A stretch of 64,000 nucleotides of DNA from an uncultured Desulfurococcaceae archaeon (GTDB taxonomy: Archaea; Thermoproteota; Thermoprotei_A; Sulfolobales; Desulfurococcaceae). A program made the position numbers and the translations under genes. This document shows, in pieces, positions 26,882-63,303 of the stretch (position 1 is the first letter of the stretch; every line of letters starts with the position of its first letter). The DNA lies in assembly GCA_964480805.1 (NCBI GenBank), contig CAYZRH010000004.1, positions 1,749 through 65,748 on the forward strand, given 5' to 3'. The notes beneath the pieces are model-generated. The model was not told the origin of the DNA and made no database searches. It was given only the letters and a program-made list of their open reading frames with translations.

Positions 26882-27811
26882 ATGATTGATAAGGATGATC
26901 CGGTGGTTAAGAAGGTATACGAGATCTATGGACTAGCTATTGAAGAGTCTAAACCAGTTAGGAATCCAGAGCTTATGATAAGGTTTTTAAGAGAAAAATA
27001 TAGGCTACTAGTAAAACCACGTATAGTATACTTAACAATAGCTGCATTCCTAAACAATAGACCAGTATTATTCGAGGGACCGCCAGGTACTGGTAAAACA
27101 GAGATTGGTGAAGCAATACTAACTCTATGGGCTGGCAAGACAGCATTCATATTACCATGTAGTGAAAACTATGATGAATACCGTGTTATAGGAGACTTCC
27201 ACCCCGTAATGGCTATAAGTAAGGGTTTTAATGAGGAAAGCTTTATACCAAGGCCATTGCTTGCAGCATTGATTTTGGATGCTGGCATACTTATTGACGA
27301 GGTACGTAGGAGTAGTGAGGAGTTCCAAAACCTTCTTCTAGATATTATTGATAAGAGACGTATTATTGTTCCAGAACTTAAGAAGGTTTATAGACAGAAG
27401 GGTATTGGTTTCCAAGTCATACTAACTAGTAACCCAGAGGATATAGCACAGAATGAACTTAGTGATGCTTTTCTAAGACGTGTTGTTAGGATAAAGTTTA
27501 GTTATCCAAGTATAGAAGAGGAGTTGGAGATTCTGAAGCTAAGGCTTAGAGACAACCTAGACTATATACCAAAACCACTAGTTAAGAAAATGCTTAATGT
27601 AGTCAATGTTTTAAGAACTAAGACAGTATATAAGCCAGGTCCATCAGACACTGTTTCATGGGGTATACTTGCTGTTAAAATAGCTATGTCTCGTGGTGAT
27701 AATAGAGCATCTATAGATGACCTAGTTAGTTCTGGTGAAGCAGTCCTTATTAAGAATGTTGAGGATGAAGAAGTTGTTAGAGAAATACTCTATAGAGAGT
27801 TTAAGAAGTAG
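26882..27811 (+). CDS. MoxR-like AAA+ ATPase
   Basis: 309 aa. Walker A LFEGPPGTGKTEIGEAI, Walker B GILIDEVRRSSEEFQNLLLDII, then LTSNPED...DAFLRRV. This is the single-AAA MoxR/RavA-type layout. Confidence 0.8.
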   Translation: MIDKDDPVVKKVYEIYGLAIEESKPVRNPELMIRFLREKYRLLVKPRIVYLTIAAFLNNRPVLFEGPPGTGKTEIGEAILTLWAGKTAFILPCSENYDEYRVIGDFHPVMAISKGFNEESFIPRPLLAALILDAGILIDEVRRSSEEFQNLLLDIIDKRRIIVPELKKVYRQKGIGFQVILTSNPEDIAQNELSDAFLRRVVRIKFSYPSIEEELEILKLRLRDNLDYIPKPLVKKMLNVVNVLRTKTVYKPGPSDTVSWGILAVKIAMSRGDNRASIDDLVSSGEAVLIKNVEDEEVVREILYREFKK

Positions 27812-29702
27812 GTCAGAGCATATAGTTTTCTCACTAGTAAATGCTCTCTATAAACTAGGTTATAGAATACCTATTTCACAGACTATAGACTTTATTAAAA
27901 TCCTTGAAACATACATGGTTTTGAAACATTATGCTGAACCATCATATCCGGAGATTATTGAATTAGCTGAATCAGTATTTACAACAATAAATTGGAGTCC
28001 AAAACTTAAACAAGAACTACTAGATCTTTTGGAGAGAAAACGTGTGAGGCTGGAAAGTGGTTTAAGCCAGAAAATAGTATCTAGGATTAGGTTTGGTAGA
28101 GAAGTAAATGTTAGAGAGATACTCTCTGGTAGACTGTGTAAGAGTGATATTGAGACATATATTGTTATGAGGAAACTAGGTATTATACACCGCATTAGAT
28201 CTGGTAAGTATAGAGCTGTTAAATATAATGAATATAGAAGAACTATTAAGAAACATAGAGACTATAGTATTAGTGCAAGTGACATTATTAAATACCTTGA
28301 TGAAATACCTATGGGCTATTGGAGTATGCTTCTATCTCAAGATGTTATAGATAAAGCTAGTTATAAAACGCTCTTTAAACTAGCTGAAGAACTGGTTAAA
28401 ACGGATAATGAGAGGCTTAAGAAACTGGTTCTTAACAGACTGTCACATGACATAAGCTCTACTACTAAACTTAGTTCTAGAGAGAGGAGAGTTCTTCAAA
28501 ACTTGTTAAGAACAACTAATTATAGTGATTTAAGGCTTTCTCTTAAAGCATATAGAGATGTTAGTAGGGATCTTATAGATAGGTATGGTTTAAGGGATCT
28601 TATTAAAGAAGTTAAGTCGTTAAGTATTAGTGAGAGAAGGAGAGTATTAAGTAAACTTGTAAAGTATTTAAATAAGAATGAGTTAGAGCAAGTTGTTAAT
28701 GAAGTAGATATACTATCTTTTACTAGAATACCTAGATTAGATAAGACTTTATCAACAATATATAAATTAGCGAATGCTCTTACCAGCTTTATTGATTATA
28801 AACTGACACAGAATCCTTCATTTCTAGACTATAGTCTCTATTATTTAAAGGATATTGATGCTAACACTATTCCTCTAAAATACAGGCCTTTATATGAAAG
28901 CCTTATCCATAGAGATCTTAGGACTATGGTCAATAAGCTATCTATAGTTGAACTACACAGCCTTGTAGAGTATGTTATTGGTAGAACTGTTGAGTTAAGG
29001 AATCTAGGTTATAGTGATGAAGTACTAGCTAATGCTCTAACACTTAGTATGAGAGTTCTTAGAAACATAGTTGGTAGACATGGTGGTTTCCTTGTTGAGA
29101 AGAGGAAGACTATGGTTCACCGTGGACGTGTTGAGGTTAAAGATAGTCTATACCATTTTGTTAGACATAACTATAGCCTTGTCTATACTTATAGAGTTAG
29201 AAAACCATCTATTGTAGCATTACTTGATGTTAGTGGCTCTATGAGAAACTACTCTCTATGGGCTATAACAACACTAGCTTCTATAATATATCGTGTTAGA
29301 CTAGCTATAGTGTTTTCTGATAAGTGTGAAGTTATAAGGTTTACAAAGTATCCTATAAGACTACTACATAGGTTTCTTAAAACAATATTGATGAGTAGGT
29401 TTAATGGCTATACTGATATAGACTCTGCTCTAACAGAAGCCTTGAGGTATATTAGAAGTGGTGATGTAGTTGTACTTATAAGCGATCTTAAACAGACTGT
29501 TAAGGGTGACCCCGTACAGAAGATTAAGAGGGTTGTTGATAGAGGTACTAGGTTTATAGCTATAACACCTAAGCACTATAGTGTAGATCTCGCTAATGCT
29601 ATTAGAGAACTTAGTGGAGAAGTTATAGTATCTAGTTCACCACTAGAAATACCTTATATACTTAGGAAAAAGCTAAACTTAAAAATAGGTATACGGATTT
29701 GA
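27735..29702 (+). CDS. von Willebrand factor A (VWA/MIDAS) domain protein with long helical N-terminal region
   Basis: C-terminal VWA: IVALLDVSGSMRNY (DxSxS), GYTDIDSAL, VVVLISDLKQ. Start is uncertain (GTG 27735, ATG 27756 or 27765). Every option overlaps the MoxR stop at 27811, suggesting coupling. Confidence 0.75.
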   Translation: MKQSLLRMLRMKKLLEKYSIESLRSRSEHIVFSLVNALYKLGYRIPISQTIDFIKILETYMVLKHYAEPSYPEIIELAESVFTTINWSPKLKQELLDLLERKRVRLESGLSQKIVSRIRFGREVNVREILSGRLCKSDIETYIVMRKLGIIHRIRSGKYRAVKYNEYRRTIKKHRDYSISASDIIKYLDEIPMGYWSMLLSQDVIDKASYKTLFKLAEELVKTDNERLKKLVLNRLSHDISSTTKLSSRERRVLQNLLRTTNYSDLRLSLKAYRDVSRDLIDRYGLRDLIKEVKSLSISERRRVLSKLVKYLNKNELEQVVNEVDILSFTRIPRLDKTLSTIYKLANALTSFIDYKLTQNPSFLDYSLYYLKDIDANTIPLKYRPLYESLIHRDLRTMVNKLSIVELHSLVEYVIGRTVELRNLGYSDEVLANALTLSMRVLRNIVGRHGGFLVEKRKTMVHRGRVEVKDSLYHFVRHNYSLVYTYRVRKPSIVALLDVSGSMRNYSLWAITTLASIIYRVRLAIVFSDKCEVIRFTKYPIRLLHRFLKTILMSRFNGYTDIDSALTEALRYIRSGDVVVLISDLKQTVKGDPVQKIKRVVDRGTRFIAITPKHYSVDLANAIRELSGEVIVSSSPLEIPYILRKKLNLKIGIRI

Positions 29703-53584: not shown

Positions 53585-53990
53585 AGCCTAGTATATCACC
53601 ATATACCCGTTTTTCATAAGCTATAGTTAGCCAGTACATATGCATTCTCTAGATGAGGGTTTGAACATATAGAGTTTATAAACTCTACGCCATATAAGGT
53701 GCTGTTAGATAAATAGTTCTATTTAACATCATGTATATACTATTGCTCAATCTTCATACCTAGTAAACGATATTTTAGATAAATACTAATACTGGAGGAG
53801 CTTGTTTATCGGCGAATCTATGTCTATGTAAACACTTCTGTTGAGACCCAGTTTTTATAAGAGGATATGGTTAGCACCATTTTTACATAGCTGATGCAAA
53901 GTTATGTTCGACAGATTTAAAGTCTAGGTTCTAGTCAATACCATGTAGGTGTTTATTGTGGCTCACAATAGGCTCTCTCTTAGCTATGTA

Positions 53991-56132
53991 ATGGAGGTAA
54001 TCAATTCTATTGAATCAGAGAAGCTTGTTCTACCAGTACCCCCTAGAATAGACCATTCAGACCATATTATAAAGACTGCTTTAGCTGGTCATACAAAGCT
54101 TGCTGCTGACCATATCCTTTACCCTGAAATGAAGGGTAGAGTTGTTGATGTACTAGGCTCTGTTATTAGAAGGCTTAACCTACTATTTATTTCTAGTAAT
54201 CCTGTTGGTGTTGAAGAAAGTATTAAACGTAGGTATATAGCTGATCGTTATCTAGCCTATGATCTATTGTTAGAGATCGCATGGAATCTCATAGGTATAG
54301 AGTCTAGAAGAGTCGGTTTTGGTAGAGAAGAGATTGAGAGAGGGTTAAAGATAATCGTTAACGCTCTTAAAGACTGGGAGGCTGTTGAAAGGGAAGAGTA
54401 TGGTGAACCAGTTATACTAGAAGCTGTTATTAGTAAACAACTAGAGTCTATGAAGATAGTGAATAAGGGCAATAGCCTACTAGCATACATTGCTAGTGAA
54501 GTAGAGAAAAAGCTTGATCAAGGAAGTCTAGCTGAATCATTTATTAATGCTATGAAGAACCAGCTTACTAACACTATATACTACCATGCTTCACTCCATA
54601 GACTATGCAAGTTTGGCAATGACTATGCTCTAGGACTTAGATGGCTTAGACACCTAGGCTATGTACAAGTTTCAACAAACCCTGCTCTAGCAGCTAGAGC
54701 CTATGATGACGACCCTAGTTTATGGGAGAGGTTTAAGAAGTATGCTAGAGAAGTCTTGTCTAAAAAGTATCCAGAATGGTTTAGAGATCCAGATAAATAC
54801 GCTGACGATATTGCTATGGAAGCTACAAGGTTCGGTCTTATGGAGAACTTCCTTGTATTTAGACCTCCATTCTTCTGGTCAGATTATCACGACGGTCTTG
54901 TAAGCTACCAGCTTAACCCATTGATAGCACATGATCCTGTTAAGAGTGTTGAAGCTGCTAAAGAGTTTGCTATAAGGCTTGAAGAGGATTTAAGAGTATA
55001 TGATGAGTATCTACTATGGGGTTATACAACAGCTAATGTAGAGAAGGGTAGACCCAACCTTGTTGTAAAAGTAGCTGCAGCCTATCCAGCAGCCTTAGAG
55101 ATTGCCCGTAAACTTAACGAAATAGGTATTGGCCAGAACATCACGGTTAGCTATACAGTGGCTCAGGAGGTATTAATTGGAGTAGCTGCTATGGAGGGTA
55201 TGGCTAAAGCTATTAAGAAGGGTATTAAGCCAACACAAACCTATGACACTAATATGGGTGGTAGACTAGAGGATCATTTAAGAGATGTTGTTGCTGCTAA
55301 ACTTGTTTGGAAAGCTATTGAGAGACTTAGTGATGATGAGAAGGAGAGGAAAGTTAACGATCTTTTAGAAAAACTTCTTAAAGACAAAGAGAAGCTTGAA
55401 GAAGCTATAAAGATGCCTCTAAGTGAGAGAATAGACTACTTAGTATCAAAGCGTGTTCTAGGGAGAAACTTGTTAAGAGAAGAGTTTGTTGAATTCCTTG
55501 ACAAGAGCGGTGTATTTGGTTCTAGAGAGAAGCTTATTGAAATGCTTAAAAGGATCCAGTATGATCTAGCTTTATCAGGTACATTTGTTGCACAGAGAGT
55601 TTATGAAATAATGTTTTCTCCATGGAATCGTGAGAAATGGATAAAATACCTTATGGAGAAACACGGGATAACACGTGAAGAAGCAGTGTATGTTATAGAC
55701 CGCATAGACCTACTGCCAGCTTCTAAGAGAAAACCTATTGATACACTATATACGTTTGCATCAAAGAATATGACTAATACAGAATTCCCTAACCACCAGT
55801 TAAAAGTACAACAAGAATATATGAAACCAGGGTTTAAACTAGATGATTATGCAGAGTCTATATATCAACAACTAGACCAAGAGGCTCTTAAGAGACTTAC
55901 GGAAGAGTATGAAGACTTCGTAAAAGCATATGAAGCATCGCCAGAACTTAATGAGTTATTGAAAAAAGTTGGGATAACAGGAGATTATGGAAACCGTGGT
56001 ATAGAGGTAGAGAAATGGCCAGAGTATGGTCCATGTAGAAAGACTATGAAAGAGTTTACAAATGCTTACCTAAGATTCCGTGATAAAGTTCTTGAAACAA
56101 TTAAAGAACTGGGAAGGGAGTTAGGCTTATAG
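53991..56132 (+). CDS. large (~710-727 aa) protein with transaldolase/FSA-like TIM-barrel motifs
   Basis: VQVSTNPALA (cf. TTNPSL). LVVKVAAAYPAALEIARKLNEIGIGQNITVSYTVAQE (cf. E. coli TalB [36 protein letters not shown], including the Schiff-base Lys). NMGGRLEDHL (cf. SPFVGRILDW). ORF opens at GTG 53949; first ATG is 53991. Confidence 0.45.
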   Translation: MEVINSIESEKLVLPVPPRIDHSDHIIKTALAGHTKLAADHILYPEMKGRVVDVLGSVIRRLNLLFISSNPVGVEESIKRRYIADRYLAYDLLLEIAWNLIGIESRRVGFGREEIERGLKIIVNALKDWEAVEREEYGEPVILEAVISKQLESMKIVNKGNSLLAYIASEVEKKLDQGSLAESFINAMKNQLTNTIYYHASLHRLCKFGNDYALGLRWLRHLGYVQVSTNPALAARAYDDDPSLWERFKKYAREVLSKKYPEWFRDPDKYADDIAMEATRFGLMENFLVFRPPFFWSDYHDGLVSYQLNPLIAHDPVKSVEAAKEFAIRLEEDLRVYDEYLLWGYTTANVEKGRPNLVVKVAAAYPAALEIARKLNEIGIGQNITVSYTVAQEVLIGVAAMEGMAKAIKKGIKPTQTYDTNMGGRLEDHLRDVVAAKLVWKAIERLSDDEKERKVNDLLEKLLKDKEKLEEAIKMPLSERIDYLVSKRVLGRNLLREEFVEFLDKSGVFGSREKLIEMLKRIQYDLALSGTFVAQRVYEIMFSPWNREKWIKYLMEKHGITREEAVYVIDRIDLLPASKRKPIDTLYTFASKNMTNTEFPNHQLKVQQEYMKPGFKLDDYAESIYQQLDQEALKRLTEEYEDFVKAYEASPELNELLKKVGITGDYGNRGIEVEKWPEYGPCRKTMKEFTNAYLRFRDKVLETIKELGRELGL

Positions 56133-58707: not shown

Positions 58708-59751
58708 TTATTTTTCATATAACCTATATACATAGATAGCGTTATCTAGTATTATATAGAGTTCTTTGAAATCGGCCTTATCAGCTAATACGATTACCTT
58801 ATTATACCTCCTTGCTAGTGATAAAAACTTTCTAAAGTCATTAACTTCTATCAAAGGCTTATTTCCAAGATCCACTACTCTACCTGGTAGAATGTACGGT
58901 CTATTAACTGTAATGTATTGTTCATAGACTTTTTTCTCCTTAAACTTTGTGATATAGATGGTTGTTAGTGTAAATAATGTTAGTGCTAAAGCTATTGTTG
59001 TATATGTAAGTAGTGTTCTAGAAGCAAGTATGTCTAAACCAAGTAGATTAAACATTTTCTTCTTCATTATAGTTTTTTCGTCAGTATAGCTTTTACTATC
59101 ACCACTCTTAGTTATTGTAACCATATTTCCCTCTTTATCAATAGATATACTTACTTTAGGATTAATTCTATATGTAGCATTTACACCTGTTCCATAAACT
59201 ACATTAGTTAGCAAGTCTATAGAGAGTGTTATAGTATAAGATCTTGTCTTAATACCAGTCTCTTTCTCAATAGTATTTACAATTTTGTGGATTTTACTCA
59301 TATTCAATAGTATAGTGTCTCTAAACTTGCCAGCATCAATATGACTCGGTTCTTTAAATAATATAGTTTTAGACCAGACACCAGAGCTTATGATTAAGTA
59401 TATGGTGTAGTCTATACTTACATCTCTTATAGATCCGTATTTTGTATTAGAGTATAATATGGGGTCATAGTAGAGATCTAGTACAATATACTTGAGTAAA
59501 CTAAGGTATACCTTATTTGAACTTATATTTTCTACATAGTCATATATTAAAGCTGGTTTTACAACAGCCTTATTCTTAATAGCTACTTTCAAGTCACAAT
59601 ACTTTACAGTACTAGTGTACTGTGTATATGGAGGTTCACGGTACACTATAGCTAATAGTATACTAGAGGTTATTGTTGAAACTAGGAATAAAGCTATAAA
59701 GACTATGAGAACTTTATCAATAATACTTTTATTTAAACCATTTTTAATCAA
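58708..59751 (-). CDS. bitopic membrane protein, accessory gene of the TasA-like/signal-peptidase cluster
   Basis: 347 aa. TM near the N-terminus (VLIVFIALFLVSTITSSILLAIV), a ~210-aa external domain, a second TM (TLLTYTTIALALTLFTLTTIYI) and an ~80-aa cytoplasmic tail. Overlaps the upstream peptidase gene by 8 nt. Confidence 0.55.
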   Translation of the reverse strand: MIKNGLNKSIIDKVLIVFIALFLVSTITSSILLAIVYREPPYTQYTSTVKYCDLKVAIKNKAVVKPALIYDYVENISSNKVYLSLLKYIVLDLYYDPILYSNTKYGSIRDVSIDYTIYLIISSGVWSKTILFKEPSHIDAGKFRDTILLNMSKIHKIVNTIEKETGIKTRSYTITLSIDLLTNVVYGTGVNATYRINPKVSISIDKEGNMVTITKSGDSKSYTDEKTIMKKKMFNLLGLDILASRTLLTYTTIALALTLFTLTTIYITKFKEKKVYEQYITVNRPYILPGRVVDLGNKPLIEVNDFRKFLSLARRYNKVIVLADKADFKELYIILDNAIYVYRLYEK

Positions 59752-60943
59752 TACGCATGATCACCTCCTTAACTATATATAGGCTAAATATGAATAGAAT
59801 GATTGATGTTAGTGTAACAACAAATGTTACATAGTCTTTAGATAGTATTGCTAGAAATATTATAGGCATACCTATATATGGTATTGAGTATATGGTCTTA
59901 CCAAGTATATTATCGTAACGTACAACCCATGGATCAACTTCTTTATTAGCATCGCCTTTTGTTAGATAATATGATCTATTTTCCTTGATGAATGTTTCAA
60001 TAACTCTATGTGTAACAATCTTGTCTTTAACCATAAACGTTATTACATCTTCTTTTGTAATATTGTTTACATTTGTATCAATAACAATTATATCACCCAT
60101 ATTTATTTGAGGAGCCATACTACCACTTGTGACAATAAGTAGTCTATACCCACTAATGGTTATAAGCACCAATGTTATAGTTAGGGTGAAAGCAGTAATG
60201 TTTAGTATTGTTGATAGAGTTCTTCTTAATGAGGATATGTAGAGGTTTTCTACATTAGTGGTGTTTTTATTCTTTATTAATACATAATATATTATTGATA
60301 ATTGAGACATAGTTATAAAAATTGATAGCGGTAGGGAAATGGTTAATGGGATTGCAGGTAATATAGGCAGAGTTTTTGTCATAACGGTATGGGGTATACT
60401 ATAGAGTAGTTGTATACTGATATTTGTATTGATAGCAAGTATTGTTAGAAATAGCTGGTTAAGGAAGACTGTCATATTATATATAACTGACTCTATAGAT
60501 GGGTCTGTCAAATTACTTATTGATATGTATAGTATTGTAGTAGTTAGTGTTGGTAGCCATACTTTCACACTACGATGTTCTATAATATTGTCTATAAGAA
60601 CTCTTCTAAAACATTCAATACCTATTACAAATGATAAGGTATATACATTTGTTAATAATAGATCTACTAGAGTTAGTGTAGACAAATTATATCCAAAGCC
60701 AAATATGAGTCCAAGCATATACCTTGGTATGATACCTACTAATAATAAATACATTACTATAGACTTATCACTAACTATTCTTGAAAGCATACTTCTAGAA
60801 TTTAGAAGATATATCACTACTAAAGAAATACTTGTTATTGAAATAATTACATGAAAGGATATACCATAAGCTAATGGGAAGTTCTTTAACAAGTAGACTA
60901 TAAAAATTAACAATAAAGATAAGTACACATACTTTCTAGACAT
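59744..60943 (-). CDS. signal peptidase I (ER/archaeal/SipW type, S26B) fused to an N-terminal ~270-aa polytopic membrane domain
   Basis: C-terminal domain has all three boxes: VTSGSMAPQINMGD (catalytic Ser), IVTHRVIE (catalytic His), LTKGDANKEVDP. It is preceded by about 8 hydrophobic helices. Confidence 0.75.
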   Translation of the reverse strand: MSRKYVYLSLLLIFIVYLLKNFPLAYGISFHVIISITSISLVVIYLLNSRSMLSRIVSDKSIVMYLLLVGIIPRYMLGLIFGFGYNLSTLTLVDLLLTNVYTLSFVIGIECFRRVLIDNIIEHRSVKVWLPTLTTTILYISISNLTDPSIESVIYNMTVFLNQLFLTILAINTNISIQLLYSIPHTVMTKTLPILPAIPLTISLPLSIFITMSQLSIIYYVLIKNKNTTNVENLYISSLRRTLSTILNITAFTLTITLVLITISGYRLLIVTSGSMAPQINMGDIIVIDTNVNNITKEDVITFMVKDKIVTHRVIETFIKENRSYYLTKGDANKEVDPWVVRYDNILGKTIYSIPYIGMPIIFLAILSKDYVTFVVTLTSIILFIFSLYIVKEVIMRID

Positions 60944-61031
60944 ATATTATTCCTCAAATCCCTTTATCAAGGGGGTAAAAAATATTGGATTTAAGCATCA
61001 CATAGTTGCACCAGTCATGTGGATTTAACCG

Positions 61032-61694
61032 TTATGGCCCTATTGGCCCAGGAGTGTACTCATTCCATTGTACAGCATCAAGACTTAAGTATAGAGTTAT
61101 TGTAATGTTCTCCTGTATCCCTTGCAGTATTGTTAAGTCAAAACTTATATCAGCCTCATCACAGTGGTGTAGTTGTTTCCCAAAATTGTCACCCCACCAT
61201 ATAAGTATGTCGTCTACTCCATCACCGTCTAGGTCTATTTCATCGCCTCTTTGAAGTTCTTGTTCATTAATAGCGTAGTAGTACCATGTGTATGTTCCAT
61301 TGCTTATAGATAGTCTCCATATCTTTATTGGTATATCCCCATTATTGTGTACTATGAATGATATGTGTTCATAGTACCATGGATAAGCATTTACTATTGT
61401 AATATTTAATACATCATAATCTAAGTCTCCATCACTATCCGTTAGCGTTACAAACGTCTGTCCAACATCCTTATCTGTTTGAAACCTAACCTTATCTGGT
61501 ATTAATGTCCAGTTGAGATTCCAGTCATTAACACCCGGTCCATCGAGATGGCTAACGCCTAGCATAATCTCCCAGTCTAGCTCTCCTGTTGATACATAAG
61601 TATTGATCTTTAGTACACTAAACCACATAGCTAGTGTAAACAGTACTAATGCTATCAGAGCTAATGCTATTATACTTATAACACCTTTATTCAT
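61032..61694 (-). CDS. secreted TasA/camelysin-like (SipW-type signal peptide) protein, paralogue 2
   Basis: MNKGVISIIALALIALVLFTLAMWFSVLKINTYVSTGELDW. Shares AMW..LKINTY.xTGE, LNITxVNAYP, xIPxKxW and C-terminal QWNE...GP with the upstream paralogue. ATG 61694 preferred over 61712. Confidence 0.6.
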   Translation of the reverse strand: MNKGVISIIALALIALVLFTLAMWFSVLKINTYVSTGELDWEIMLGVSHLDGPGVNDWNLNWTLIPDKVRFQTDKDVGQTFVTLTDSDGDLDYDVLNITIVNAYPWYYEHISFIVHNNGDIPIKIWRLSISNGTYTWYYYAINEQELQRGDEIDLDGDGVDDILIWWGDNFGKQLHHCDEADISFDLTILQGIQENITITLYLSLDAVQWNEYTPGPIGP

Positions 61695-61782
61695 TCCAAT
61701 ACACCTACACATACGAAGTACACGGGTTTTACACCCATTTTGAAAAACATTTTCATATTCAATACACTCCTATCACACGTCC

Positions 61783-62349
61783 TTATGGGCCATTAACTTC
61801 ATTCCACTGAGCAAACGTTAACTCTAGATCGAATGAATAGAGTGCTGTCTCATTAGCTGCCTGAGTAACAATGATTTCTAGGATAAAGGTTTTGTTCTCT
61901 CCAGGCTCTATTTGAGTAGAATTTGGCTTGATCAAGGTTACATTTAATGCTTCTGTATCATTAGGGTCTAAGTGGGTCCAGTTAACATTATATAGTTTTA
62001 CAGGTATTGTACCAATATTGTCAACAACTAGTGTAATGTTTACAGCATAACCTGGATAGGCGTTAACAAGTGTTATATTTAGTTTTATAGGGTTGCCTTC
62101 TGTATCATTCTTTTCTACAGTAACTATACATTTACTAACATTCTTGTTTTCAGTATTATTGAACCCTGGTGCTTGTGGATCTGGCCCTGTATCACTGCAT
62201 TCCCAAGCACTCCATTTAACTTTAACTTCACCAGTGTGTATGTAAGTGTTGATCTTTAGTGTTTCTGACCACATAGCTATTGTCGTTCCAATTCCTACCA
62301 GTATTACAGATAGGAGTACTATTCCAAGTACTTTACCTAGAGCTATCAT
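61783..62349 (-). CDS. secreted TasA/camelysin-like (SipW-type signal peptide) protein, paralogue 1; candidate fibre subunit
   Basis: 188 aa. LLSVILVGIGTTIAMWSETLKINTYIHTGEV fits the SipW-cognate signal pattern G-x-G-T-x-A-x-(F/W)-S-(D/E)-T. Sequon-rich beta-type sequence. Ends QWNEVNGP. Confidence 0.65.
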   Translation of the reverse strand: MIALGKVLGIVLLSVILVGIGTTIAMWSETLKINTYIHTGEVKVKWSAWECSDTGPDPQAPGFNNTENKNVSKCIVTVEKNDTEGNPIKLNITLVNAYPGYAVNITLVVDNIGTIPVKLYNVNWTHLDPNDTEALNVTLIKPNSTQIEPGENKTFILEIIVTQAANETALYSFDLELTFAQWNEVNGP

Positions 62350-62455
62350 GTTCTACACCTTTTACAATACATTATTGCTAACAGTATTTAATAACTTAGA
62401 GTATGTGTTATATAGAAAAACTATATGTACAAAAAATCTATATCTATAATATACT

Positions 62456-63094
62456 CTACCTACTAGGTACTAGTATGGTATACCTATCAGGCTTTATACC
62501 TGCTTGTGTAAATATCTTCTTAAAATAGGATATGGGATACTGATGTATAGCATTATTTATTAGAATACATTTCTCATTGGTATCAACTAGATAGAATAAT
62601 AGTCTACCAATAGAATCTATGATCTCATCTATACTCATAGCTTCATCAATAACTGATATTATATAGTTTACATCTCTAGTGCCATAAAGATTTATATTAT
62701 ATCTAAATCCAGAGCGGCCAACAATGATCTTATTTATTAAAGCTAGAGTCTGTCTGTTTAAGTTCTTACTAGTCTTTAAGATCAAGTATTTTAGTAATAG
62801 CTCTAAGTAGTCATTGTTCTTTTCTCTATATTCAAAGACGTTGTAGAGTCTCGTAATTAATGAAAATAATCGTCTACCATGTGGTGTCATTACATACCCT
62901 CTTAACCTACCCTTACTAACAACTTCTATAGCATTAATACTAATAAGTTGGTTAAGGAACTTCTCCAAACTCTTTGTATTAAGGTTTGTAGCATAGAGTA
63001 TATGCGTCTTCTTAGCTATTCCCTCACTATTAATGAACTTTAATATAGAGAAGATGATATCTATACGTGTACGGTGTTGTGCTTTGTAAATCAT
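62456..63094 (-). CDS. winged-helix DNA-binding protein (putative transcriptional regulator) with uncharacterised C-terminal domain
   Basis: 212 aa. N-terminal RIDIIFSILKFINSEGIAKKTHILYATNLNTKSLEKFLNQLISINAIEVV is wHTH-like. First gene of the co-directional cluster. Confidence 0.5.
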   Translation of the reverse strand: MIYKAQHRTRIDIIFSILKFINSEGIAKKTHILYATNLNTKSLEKFLNQLISINAIEVVSKGRLRGYVMTPHGRRLFSLITRLYNVFEYREKNNDYLELLLKYLILKTSKNLNRQTLALINKIIVGRSGFRYNINLYGTRDVNYIISVIDEAMSIDEIIDSIGRLLFYLVDTNEKCILINNAIHQYPISYFKKIFTQAGIKPDRYTILVPSR

Positions 63095-63303
63095 GTCTCT
63101 TTACATCCAAGCATCTGTGCATGGTAGTATGTATCTCTGGTATATATTATATTTTCTGTATAAGAGATACATTTTTATGTATTAATTATTTTAATATGGA
63201 GATTGATTAATAGGTTATTAATAACTTAAAGCATTTATATAATCCATAATAGTATTTGTTATAGTAGTGAATTAGTTATAATAGTGCTTATAGTTATTAT
63301 ATT

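Follow-up and report, generated by a model that had tools for sequence, protein, structure and literature searches.

AbpX proteins are one clade of the TasA superfamily, whose members build matrix fibres by donor-strand complementation (bioRxiv 10.64898/2026.01.04.697558; PMC12518558). Genes for signal peptidase I and for AbpX/TasA-like paralogues adjoin abpX (Nat Commun 2025, PMC12518558). According to a January 2026 preprint, abpX loci encode a signal peptidase I "possessing ten transmembrane helices", AbpX-like minor subunits, tip proteins and "occasional transcription factors", together with a DUF5305 "SPase I-associated accessory protein" that has an extracellular beta-sandwich, two transmembrane (TM) helices and a cytoplasmic domain (bioRxiv 10.64898/2026.01.04.697558). 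DUF5305 is sometimes fused to the peptidase, for which a bacterial fusion is cited, and Table S3 lists loci from Zestosphaera, Ignisphaera and Desulfurococcus (same preprint). Here, we analysed 64,000 nucleotides of contig CAYZRH010000004.1 from an uncultured Desulfurococcaceae archaeon (assembly GCA_964480805.1; the whole stretch is called the window) and found a five-gene cluster that is orthologous to these three loci of Table S3. The cluster is likely an abpX-type matrix-fibre locus of an uncultured Desulfurococcales archaeon. It is a further example of an already described system and not a new system. The original prediction, made from the sequence alone, had taken a peptidase fusion, a 347-amino acid (aa) partner protein and a linked winged helix-turn-helix (wHTH) regulator to be undescribed, and all three are in the preprint.

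The cluster consists of five minus-strand open reading frames (ORFs) within positions 63094-58708 of the window. In order, they encode a regulator, a 188-aa protein, a 220-aa protein, a signal peptidase and the 347-aa protein. This order and strand were as first described, as was the overlap at the last junction, where the peptidase and 347-aa genes share exactly 8 nt (59744-59751). The motifs that had been read by eye are likewise present, namely GIGTTIAMWSETLKINTY in the 188-aa protein and SGSM, THRV and KGDAN in the peptidase. Both secreted proteins (188 and 220 aa) have more than 100 homologues at E < 1e-30, and the cluster genes are therefore not chance ORFs. Uncultured Desulfurococcaceae and other Desulfurococcales provide their closest homologues.

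The identity of the system follows from homology of the 188-aa protein (61783..62349, minus strand), which we annotate as an abpX-like major fibre subunit precursor. On its own, this protein matches the AbpX chain of Pyrodictium abyssi (PDB 9SJ2) at E 7.3e-9. The match strengthens to E 1.1e-12 with a profile of its family (A1, 88 close homologues) and to E 2.8e-20 with a broad profile (A5, 84 diverse homologues). It is also 57% identical to Zestosphaera tikiterensis A0A2R7Y7S4, named "major AbpX pilin" (bioRxiv 10.64898/2026.01.04.697558). The alignment to AbpX begins at the first residues of the mature AbpX chain (xWSETL...), and the solved mature chain starts one residue ahead of the aligned WSETL. 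From this we predict cleavage at TIA/MWSETL (the slash marks the cut), giving a mature protein of 163 aa. The predicted signal peptide thus spans residues 1-25 (62275..62349, minus strand), with its site, A25/M26, also assigned from conservation among homologues. The predicted mature subunit has an isoelectric point (pI) of 4.5, 12.3% D+E and two conserved Cys residues. P. abyssi AbpX, for which both a fibril (9SJ2) and a self-complemented monomer (9RHP) are available, has the same mature length, a low pI and the conserved Cys pair as well.

Mature residues 1-12, MWSETLKINTYI (62239..62274, minus strand), align to AbpX W2-I12 and are the predicted N-terminal donor strand. The major subunit reads A/MWSETLKINTYI and so holds both the Trp at position 2 and the acidic residue E4, as AbpX does, with which it also shares the A/xW cleavage context. 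In the AbpX cryo-EM paper, W2 is the Trp clamp and E4 a calcium-site residue; the calcium-binding residues of the AbpX fibril are E4, D18, D46, D48, E52 and E142. Conservation across the 88 homologues is nearly complete: A(-1) is found in 88/88, M1 in 87/88, W2 in 88/88 and an acidic residue (E or D) at position 4 in 84/88. The window protein conforms at all four positions. Farther along, the loop E79-x-x-D82-x-E84 aligns near AbpX D46/D48, and the equivalent of E142 lies outside the alignment. An AlphaFold2 (AF2) model of the 188-aa precursor (mean predicted local distance difference test score, pLDDT, 89) has a signal helix, a low-confidence N-terminal extension (pLDDT ~59-75 at residues 21-40) and eight beta strands. 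The AbpX monomer has an unstructured N-terminal extension, according to the cryo-EM paper, with which the modelled extension and eight-strand domain agree.

The 220-aa protein (61032..61694, minus strand) is a paralogue of the major subunit, as the comparison of the two families by hhalign gives a probability of 99.9% (E 1e-37). We annotate it as an AbpX-like minor subunit precursor. An ORF of 226 aa results if the start is taken at 61712; the second ATG (61694) has an AGGTG Shine-Dalgarno-like motif 8-9 nt upstream and was also chosen by an independent gene call, so that 220 aa is more probably the true length. Its match to AbpX is weaker by itself (E 0.007) and reaches E 1.7e-8 with the family profile. 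The protein is orthologous to and 49% identical with Z. tikiterensis A0A2R7Y7T0, published under the name "AbpX-like minor fibril subunit" (bioRxiv 10.64898/2026.01.04.697558). Cleavage is predicted at TLA/MWFSVL, after a signal peptide of 22 aa, and the subunit has a pI of 4.05 and 16.2% D+E. Acidity of this order (pI about 4, ~15% Asp/Glu) marks mature proteins of the AbpX clade, and the major subunit is acidic as well. In the AF2 precursor model of the minor subunit (pLDDT 90.4), a signal helix and an N-terminal extension of low confidence precede a beta domain of eight or more strands.

The two subunits differ in how they carry the residues of the AbpX calcium site. The minor subunit contains two acidic insertions, DSDGDLDYD and DLDGDGVDD, the latter followed by WWGDNFG; across 108 homologues, the Asp positions in the two loops vary little or not at all. 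In the family, the first loop is an invariant D-S-D-G-D-x-D that aligns to AbpX D46-S-D48, and the second has the form D-x-[DN]-G-D-G...D, then WWGDNFG. D18 is kept in 103/108. The donor strand of the window's minor subunit, MWFSVL, keeps W2 and has Ser at position 4, where AbpX and the major subunit are acidic. Within its own family this position holds E in 50, D in 25 and Q in 14 members, and Ser in 4 of the 108.

The fourth gene encodes a dedicated signal peptidase I of 399 aa (59744..60943, minus strand). It passes the model for archaeal/ER (endoplasmic reticulum)-type signal peptidase I (TIGR02228, 77.6 bits, cutoff 51.85), and its best matches in the PDB are human SEC11A/C (7P2P/7P2Q, E ~3e-9), subunits with which it shares a catalytic domain with conserved Ser, His and Asp. 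The catalytic part occupies residues 243-399 and consists of a TM helix, the ER/archaeal-type domain and one or more C-terminal TM segments. S275, H312, D331 and D337 are invariant in 32 peptidase orthologues, bacterial ones included. Unlike SEC11, the protein also has an N-terminal polytopic membrane domain, with about eight hydrophobic segments in residues 1 to ~240. Archaeal and bacterial orthologues alike conserve it, and in none of the 32 members scanned did it match a Pfam or NCBIfam family. A CPBP/Abi-like or exosortase-like identity, considered because of a conserved E-x-x-R motif, was dropped, since there are no conserved His/Cys motifs. No second signal peptidase was found within the window. 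Six Zestosphaera-like loci (L021, L028, L037, L047, L054 and L055) encode, some 2.5 kb upstream of abpX and on the other strand, a short ORF of 128-134 aa that resembles a signal peptidase; these genomes thus carry an ordinary signal peptidase beside the ten-helix one.

The last gene (58708..59751, minus strand, TTG start) encodes a DUF5305-family putative peptidase-accessory protein of 347 aa. Against Pfam PF17231 (DUF5305), the protein itself scores 25.6 bits (E 9.7e-6), under the cutoff of 29; 25 of its 29 positional orthologues match DUF5305, the best at E 3.4e-47. It is best read as a divergent member of the family. It has a TM segment at ~14-36, an ectodomain of ~210 aa, another TM segment at ~247-265 and a cytoplasmic tail of ~80 aa. 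With two hydrophobic segments it is not strictly bitopic, contrary to what had been proposed. A Shine-Dalgarno-like GGAGGTGA (59761..59768, minus strand) lies 9 nt ahead of the DUF5305 TTG, still within the 3'-terminal part of the peptidase gene; together with the 8-nt overlap, this argues for translational coupling of the two genes. In orthologous loci, the peptidase and DUF5305 genes overlap by a few bases or are separated by at most ~130 nt. Furthermore, in a Desulfurococcales metagenome-assembled genome (MAG), a single ORF of 779 aa fuses the ten-helix peptidase to DUF5305 (L059, 9313-11652, plus strand; Peptidase_S26 match at residues 262-329, DUF5305 at 572-775), which supports a physical partnership between the two proteins. 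The roles proposed below for the extra peptidase domain and for DUF5305 are drawn from linkage, coupling and this fusion. The preprint likens DUF5305 to the accessory subunits of the eukaryotic signal peptidase complex (bioRxiv 10.64898/2026.01.04.697558), a likening that is the preprint's own and does not come from homology found here.

The gene content of the cluster is widely shared. Scanning genomes, one per species, gave 58 loci, in which ORFs were labelled by phmmer and jackhmmer profiles seeded from the window. In 40 of these loci, the sequence extends 4.2 kb or more beyond the major-subunit gene on its downstream side; the minor paralogue adjoins that gene in 36 of the 40, and the large peptidase is present in 39 and DUF5305 in 38. 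Enough flanking sequence on both sides was available for 32 loci, and here an HTH_45 regulator gene occurs in 26, in 17 of them upstream on the same strand; the exact five-gene order of the window is found in 16/32. The co-occurrence that had been put forward as a check on the prediction is thus borne out. The loci of Z. tikiterensis, Ignisphaera aggregans and Desulfurococcus amylolyticus likewise have a minor subunit, a peptidase of about ten TM helices, DUF5305 and an HTH gene nearby. The P. abyssi locus is smaller than the five genes of the window and has abpX and the peptidase only. The Zestosphaera and Ignisphaera loci differ from the window in two respects. Their regulator gene is downstream and convergent, whereas that of the window is upstream on the same strand, and a third paralogue, the larger "tip" protein, is encoded between their minor-subunit and peptidase genes (316 aa in Zestosphaera, 418 aa in Ignisphaera; similar paralogues elsewhere reach 469 aa). 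Such a tip gene is present in 7/40 loci, and a search for a tip-like paralogue anywhere in the 64-kb window found none. In three loci (L031:6577-7149, L038:6606-7178 and L040:6524-7096), an additional AbpX-like paralogue of 190 aa is encoded upstream of the regulator gene; its N-terminus is divergent, G[LI]WS[SE][SN]L..., and the usual T-G-E-V motif is missing from it.

Taken as an abpX-type locus, the cluster would work as follows. Expression would be controlled by the HTH_45 regulator. Sec would export the 188-aa major and 220-aa minor subunits (the window encodes SecY outside the cluster), and their signal peptides would keep them in the membrane, with cleavage following the invariant Ala (TIA/MW and TLA/MW). 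The enzyme making the cut would be the cluster's own Ser-His-Asp signal peptidase I with its extra ~8-helix domain, probably acting in complex with the translationally coupled DUF5305 protein. Cleavage would free the N-terminal amphipathic strand MWSETLKINTYI, which would then enter the open groove of the next subunit's beta-sandwich. There, W2 would clamp, and E4 would join a Ca2+ site together with D18, D46, D48 and E52 (AbpX numbering) of the acceptor. The outcome would be a chaperone-free extracellular fibril able to mesh into a biofilm matrix. In the minor subunit the acidic acceptor site is complete (D18 and the D-S-D-G-D loop at AbpX D46/D48) whereas the donor strand is non-canonical, and this subunit would most likely cap or nucleate the fibril at one of its ends. 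Polymerisation by donor-strand complementation, calcium dependence and a function in biofilms are proposed by analogy with AbpX.

Several observations weigh against this reading or would modify it. The calcium ligand D18 of AbpX is Lys in the window's major subunit, as in 47/88 members of its family (Asp in 29/88), and calcium dependence may therefore differ from that of AbpX. The mature major subunit has eleven N-X-S/T sequons in 163 residues (the minor subunit has four), which suggests a heavily N-glycosylated fibre surface; the published AbpX model is based on protein made in E. coli and leaves glycosylation aside. Structural comparison gave little. When the full-length precursor AF2 models of both subunits were searched against the PDB with Foldseek, there was no match at E <= 1e-3, and the best (E 5.6e-3) were to generic beta-sandwiches. 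For the 188-aa model, the TasA fibre 8AUR ranked 10th (E 0.023, TM [template modelling] score 0.31), and for the 220-aa model neither TasA nor AbpA was among the 50 best matches listed. Note that the solved AbpX entries appear in no Foldseek list, presumably because they are outside that library. The jelly-roll fold is thus a prediction from sequence. There is no anchor or tip gene present that would attach the fibre to the cell, and a fibre in the source organism is a prediction from its genes.

The same observations could be explained if the secreted pair were non-polymerising surface or matrix proteins, such as S-layer-associated or adhesin-like beta-sandwiches, that are matured by a specialised peptidase and form no fibre. 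No structural match confirms a donor-strand fold, the monomer models are generic beta-sandwiches, many sequons are typical of archaeal surface proteins, and the window has neither a tip nor an anchor gene. However, the region corresponding to the AbpX donor strand is the most conserved part of both families, and the donor segment is unstructured in the monomer model, as expected if it completes the fold of a neighbour. P. abyssi AbpX, to which the homology is significant, forms donor-strand fibrils both ex vivo and in vitro. We consider a non-polymerising pair unlikely.

The relationship to TasA and AbpA needs to be stated with care, as the original prediction had called the cluster a TasA/bundling-pilus-like module with a dedicated peptidase. 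The kind is right, in that the cluster is a self-contained TasA-superfamily fibre module with an ER/archaeal-type (Ser-His) peptidase of its own, but the nearest family is AbpX, and neither TasA proper nor AbpA. For the proposed SipW-cognate signal, the motif GIGTTIAMWSETLKINTY is present, but the protein scores 16.3 bits against TIGR04088, under the cutoff of 19, and 22/88 homologues match that model below threshold. The TasA family models (Pfam PF12389 Peptidase_M73 and NCBIfam TasA) are matched by no window protein, and PF12389 is matched by only 2/88 major-subunit homologues (E 0.079). Profile comparison gives a more distant link. Against a TasA-family profile built from a database search (A3), our narrow family profiles reach hhalign probabilities of only 20-37%, too low to be useful and a point against the abpX-type reading. 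The AbpX family is large, with 2749 cluster representatives at E <= 1e-3 in an exhaustive profile search, and the broad profile A5, built from diverse hits of that search, matches A3 with a probability of 95.4% (E 1.8e-8, 83 columns). This alignment spans the signal peptide, the donor strand and an N-x-x-P-G...N-x-G-[TS]-[IL]-[PA]-[VI]-K core. The result fits the published view that AbpX is a clade of its own in the TasA superfamily; the published CLANS map puts the Thermoproteota AbpX-like proteins in a separate cluster (bioRxiv 10.64898/2026.01.04.697558).

A strict TasA/TapA/SipW system, or an AbpA-type bundling pilus as in Pyrobaculum, outside the AbpX clade, is in our judgement quite improbable. 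The resemblance to tapA-sipW-tasA of Bacillus subtilis is real in outline. That operon also has a secreted beta-sandwich subunit that assembles by donor-strand exchange in a biofilm matrix (for the window, polymerisation is assumed by analogy), an ER-type (Ser-His) signal peptidase of its own and a second secreted accessory protein. Consensus comparison finds common N- and C-terminal motifs (A-x-W/F...TG-x-[LV]-D and F-x-A-x-QWN), the best NCBIfam E-value of the peptidase is to SipW, and the broad-profile match to TasA and the appearance of 8AUR in the Foldseek list (albeit at E 0.023) point the same way. Yet the peptidase scores 80.8 bits against the SipW equivalog model NF046067, under its cutoff of 190, and SipW lacks both the extra 8-helix domain (~240 aa) and the DUF5305 partner. 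The subunit that accompanies the major one in the window is its paralogue and is not TapA-like; no cluster protein matches a TapA family in Pfam or NCBIfam, and none of the five genes is AbpB-like. AbpX assembly, moreover, is calcium-triggered and chaperone-free, unlike that of B. subtilis tapA-sipW-tasA. Similarly, AbpA of Pyrobaculum calidifontis (PNAS 2022, PMC9245690) is an archaeal donor-strand bundling fibre of the TasA superfamily, and its operon resembles the cluster in having a wHTH regulator and membrane proteins. It differs in encoding a TapA-like AbpB and no dedicated signal peptidase (PMC9245690), and no AbpA sequence match was detectable in the window: the major and minor subunits, their family profiles and the broad profile A5 gave no PDB match to AbpA (7UEG). 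The direct significant match is to AbpX.

It is highly improbable that the subunits are type IV pilin-like or Sulfolobus 'thread'-like proteins with their processing and assembly machinery encoded elsewhere: the N-terminus is hydrophobic, 7/84 distant family members have weak sub-threshold matches to the UpsA pilin model and the thread subunit is a remote TasA-superfamily relative in the literature (bioRxiv 10.64898/2026.01.04.697558; PMC12518558), but there is no class III signal motif ([KR]-G/A plus a hydrophobic stretch; the sequence is MIALGKVLG), the cluster has no pilus ATPase or platform gene, the linked enzyme is a signal peptidase I and not PibD-type in 39/40 loci, and there is no PDB sequence match to the thread subunit (7PNB), with archaeal pilin/flagellin chains listed only as non-significant (8FK7, E 0.019-0.1; 8Q30, E 0.25).

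Within the abpX-type reading, the absence of a tip gene may bear on the role of the minor subunit. This subunit has an acidic residue at donor-strand position 4 in 8/8 loci with a tip gene (L001, L002, L017, L032, L036, L039, L048 and L052) and in 16/36 without one, the latter being 35 related loci and the window (Fisher p = 0.005, raw counts). After de-replication at 70% identity, p = 0.43, in a test that has no power. As a lead only, loci with a tip protein may have the minor subunit docked into it, and in loci without one, such as this, the minor subunit may be the terminal unit. A broader proposal can be made for tip-less abpX loci, for which we would put the chances as rather low. In it, the Ca-loop-rich minor subunit would be a terminal cap or nucleator whose donor strand is free to degenerate (MWFSVL), and the 8-helix domain of the peptidase and DUF5305 would together be a membrane platform that couples cleavage to the ordered incorporation or anchoring of subunits. 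The one line of evidence behind this proposal is the correlation between the tip gene and an acidic position 4. If true, the platform would be a functional stand-in for a missing chaperone, usher or anchor.

The first gene of the cluster encodes a putative transcription regulator of 212 aa (62456..63094, minus strand), with an HTH_45/Sso10a-like winged helix at residues 8-85. It passes the cutoff of Pfam PF14947 (HTH_45; 56.1 bits, cutoff 25.5), scores 55.4 bits against the NCBIfam model of the Sso10a subfamily, under the cutoff of 60, and has Sso10a-2 (4HW0) as its best PDB match (E 4.7e-4). The C-terminal domain of ~125 aa had no family match. Upstream, at 63129..63172, lies a candidate operator and promoter of the regulator gene. 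Two 10-bp arms, ATGTATCTCT / AGAGATACAT, form a perfect inverted repeat there, on either side of a TATA-like, AT-rich stretch about 35 nt ahead of the regulator ATG. The core of the repeat, ATGTAT...ATACAT, is found in the same place upstream of the regulator genes in L005 and L010, and in a weaker form in L008. The repeat is a possible autoregulatory operator of the HTH_45 gene. Its linkage to the subunit genes suggests that the regulator may control the cluster.

The cluster stands out from its surroundings in composition. Its GC content is 0.317, compared with 0.372 for the window, which is at the 0.8th percentile among same-sized windows. The most AT-rich of its genes are the two membrane-protein genes (GC 0.29). 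The ribosomal-protein and SecY cluster at ~23-40 kb has a GC of ~0.40-0.43, so the AT-richness that had been noticed by eye is confirmed. On the downstream end, an ABC-2 transporter pair converges on the cluster, and on the other side an archease gene, divergently transcribed, lies ~210 bp past the regulator gene. Neither belongs to the module, as the ABC-2 permease was found in none of the other loci and the archease in three close relatives only. Rfam and tRNA scans of the window returned nothing relevant to the cluster.

Two other places in the window deserve mention. At 26882-29702 (plus strand), two ORFs of 309 aa and 655 aa, the second with a VWA_CoxE domain, separate the L3/L4 block from the S3...S5-SecY block within the ribosomal-protein gene cluster. 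The GC of this segment (~0.345) is below that of its neighbours, and it looks like an insertion into a normally compact ribosomal-protein cluster. At 53949-56132 (plus strand), an ORF of 727 aa, far longer than ordinary transaldolases, has a weak transaldolase/FSA-like match (residues 235-410, 37.5 bits).

Our survey adds to what has been described for abpX loci in several ways. Among archaeal loci, the commonest arrangement is that of the window, five genes with the regulator upstream and without a tip gene (a tip gene occurs in only 7/40 loci), and a fusion of the peptidase to DUF5305 exists in Archaea. The pattern of donor-strand residues and Ca ligands differs between major and minor subunits. 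With this cluster, the AbpX family of calcium-responsive matrix fibres gains a further member from uncultured Desulfurococcales; the family links archaeal biofilm scaffolds with the bacterial (TasA) ones.

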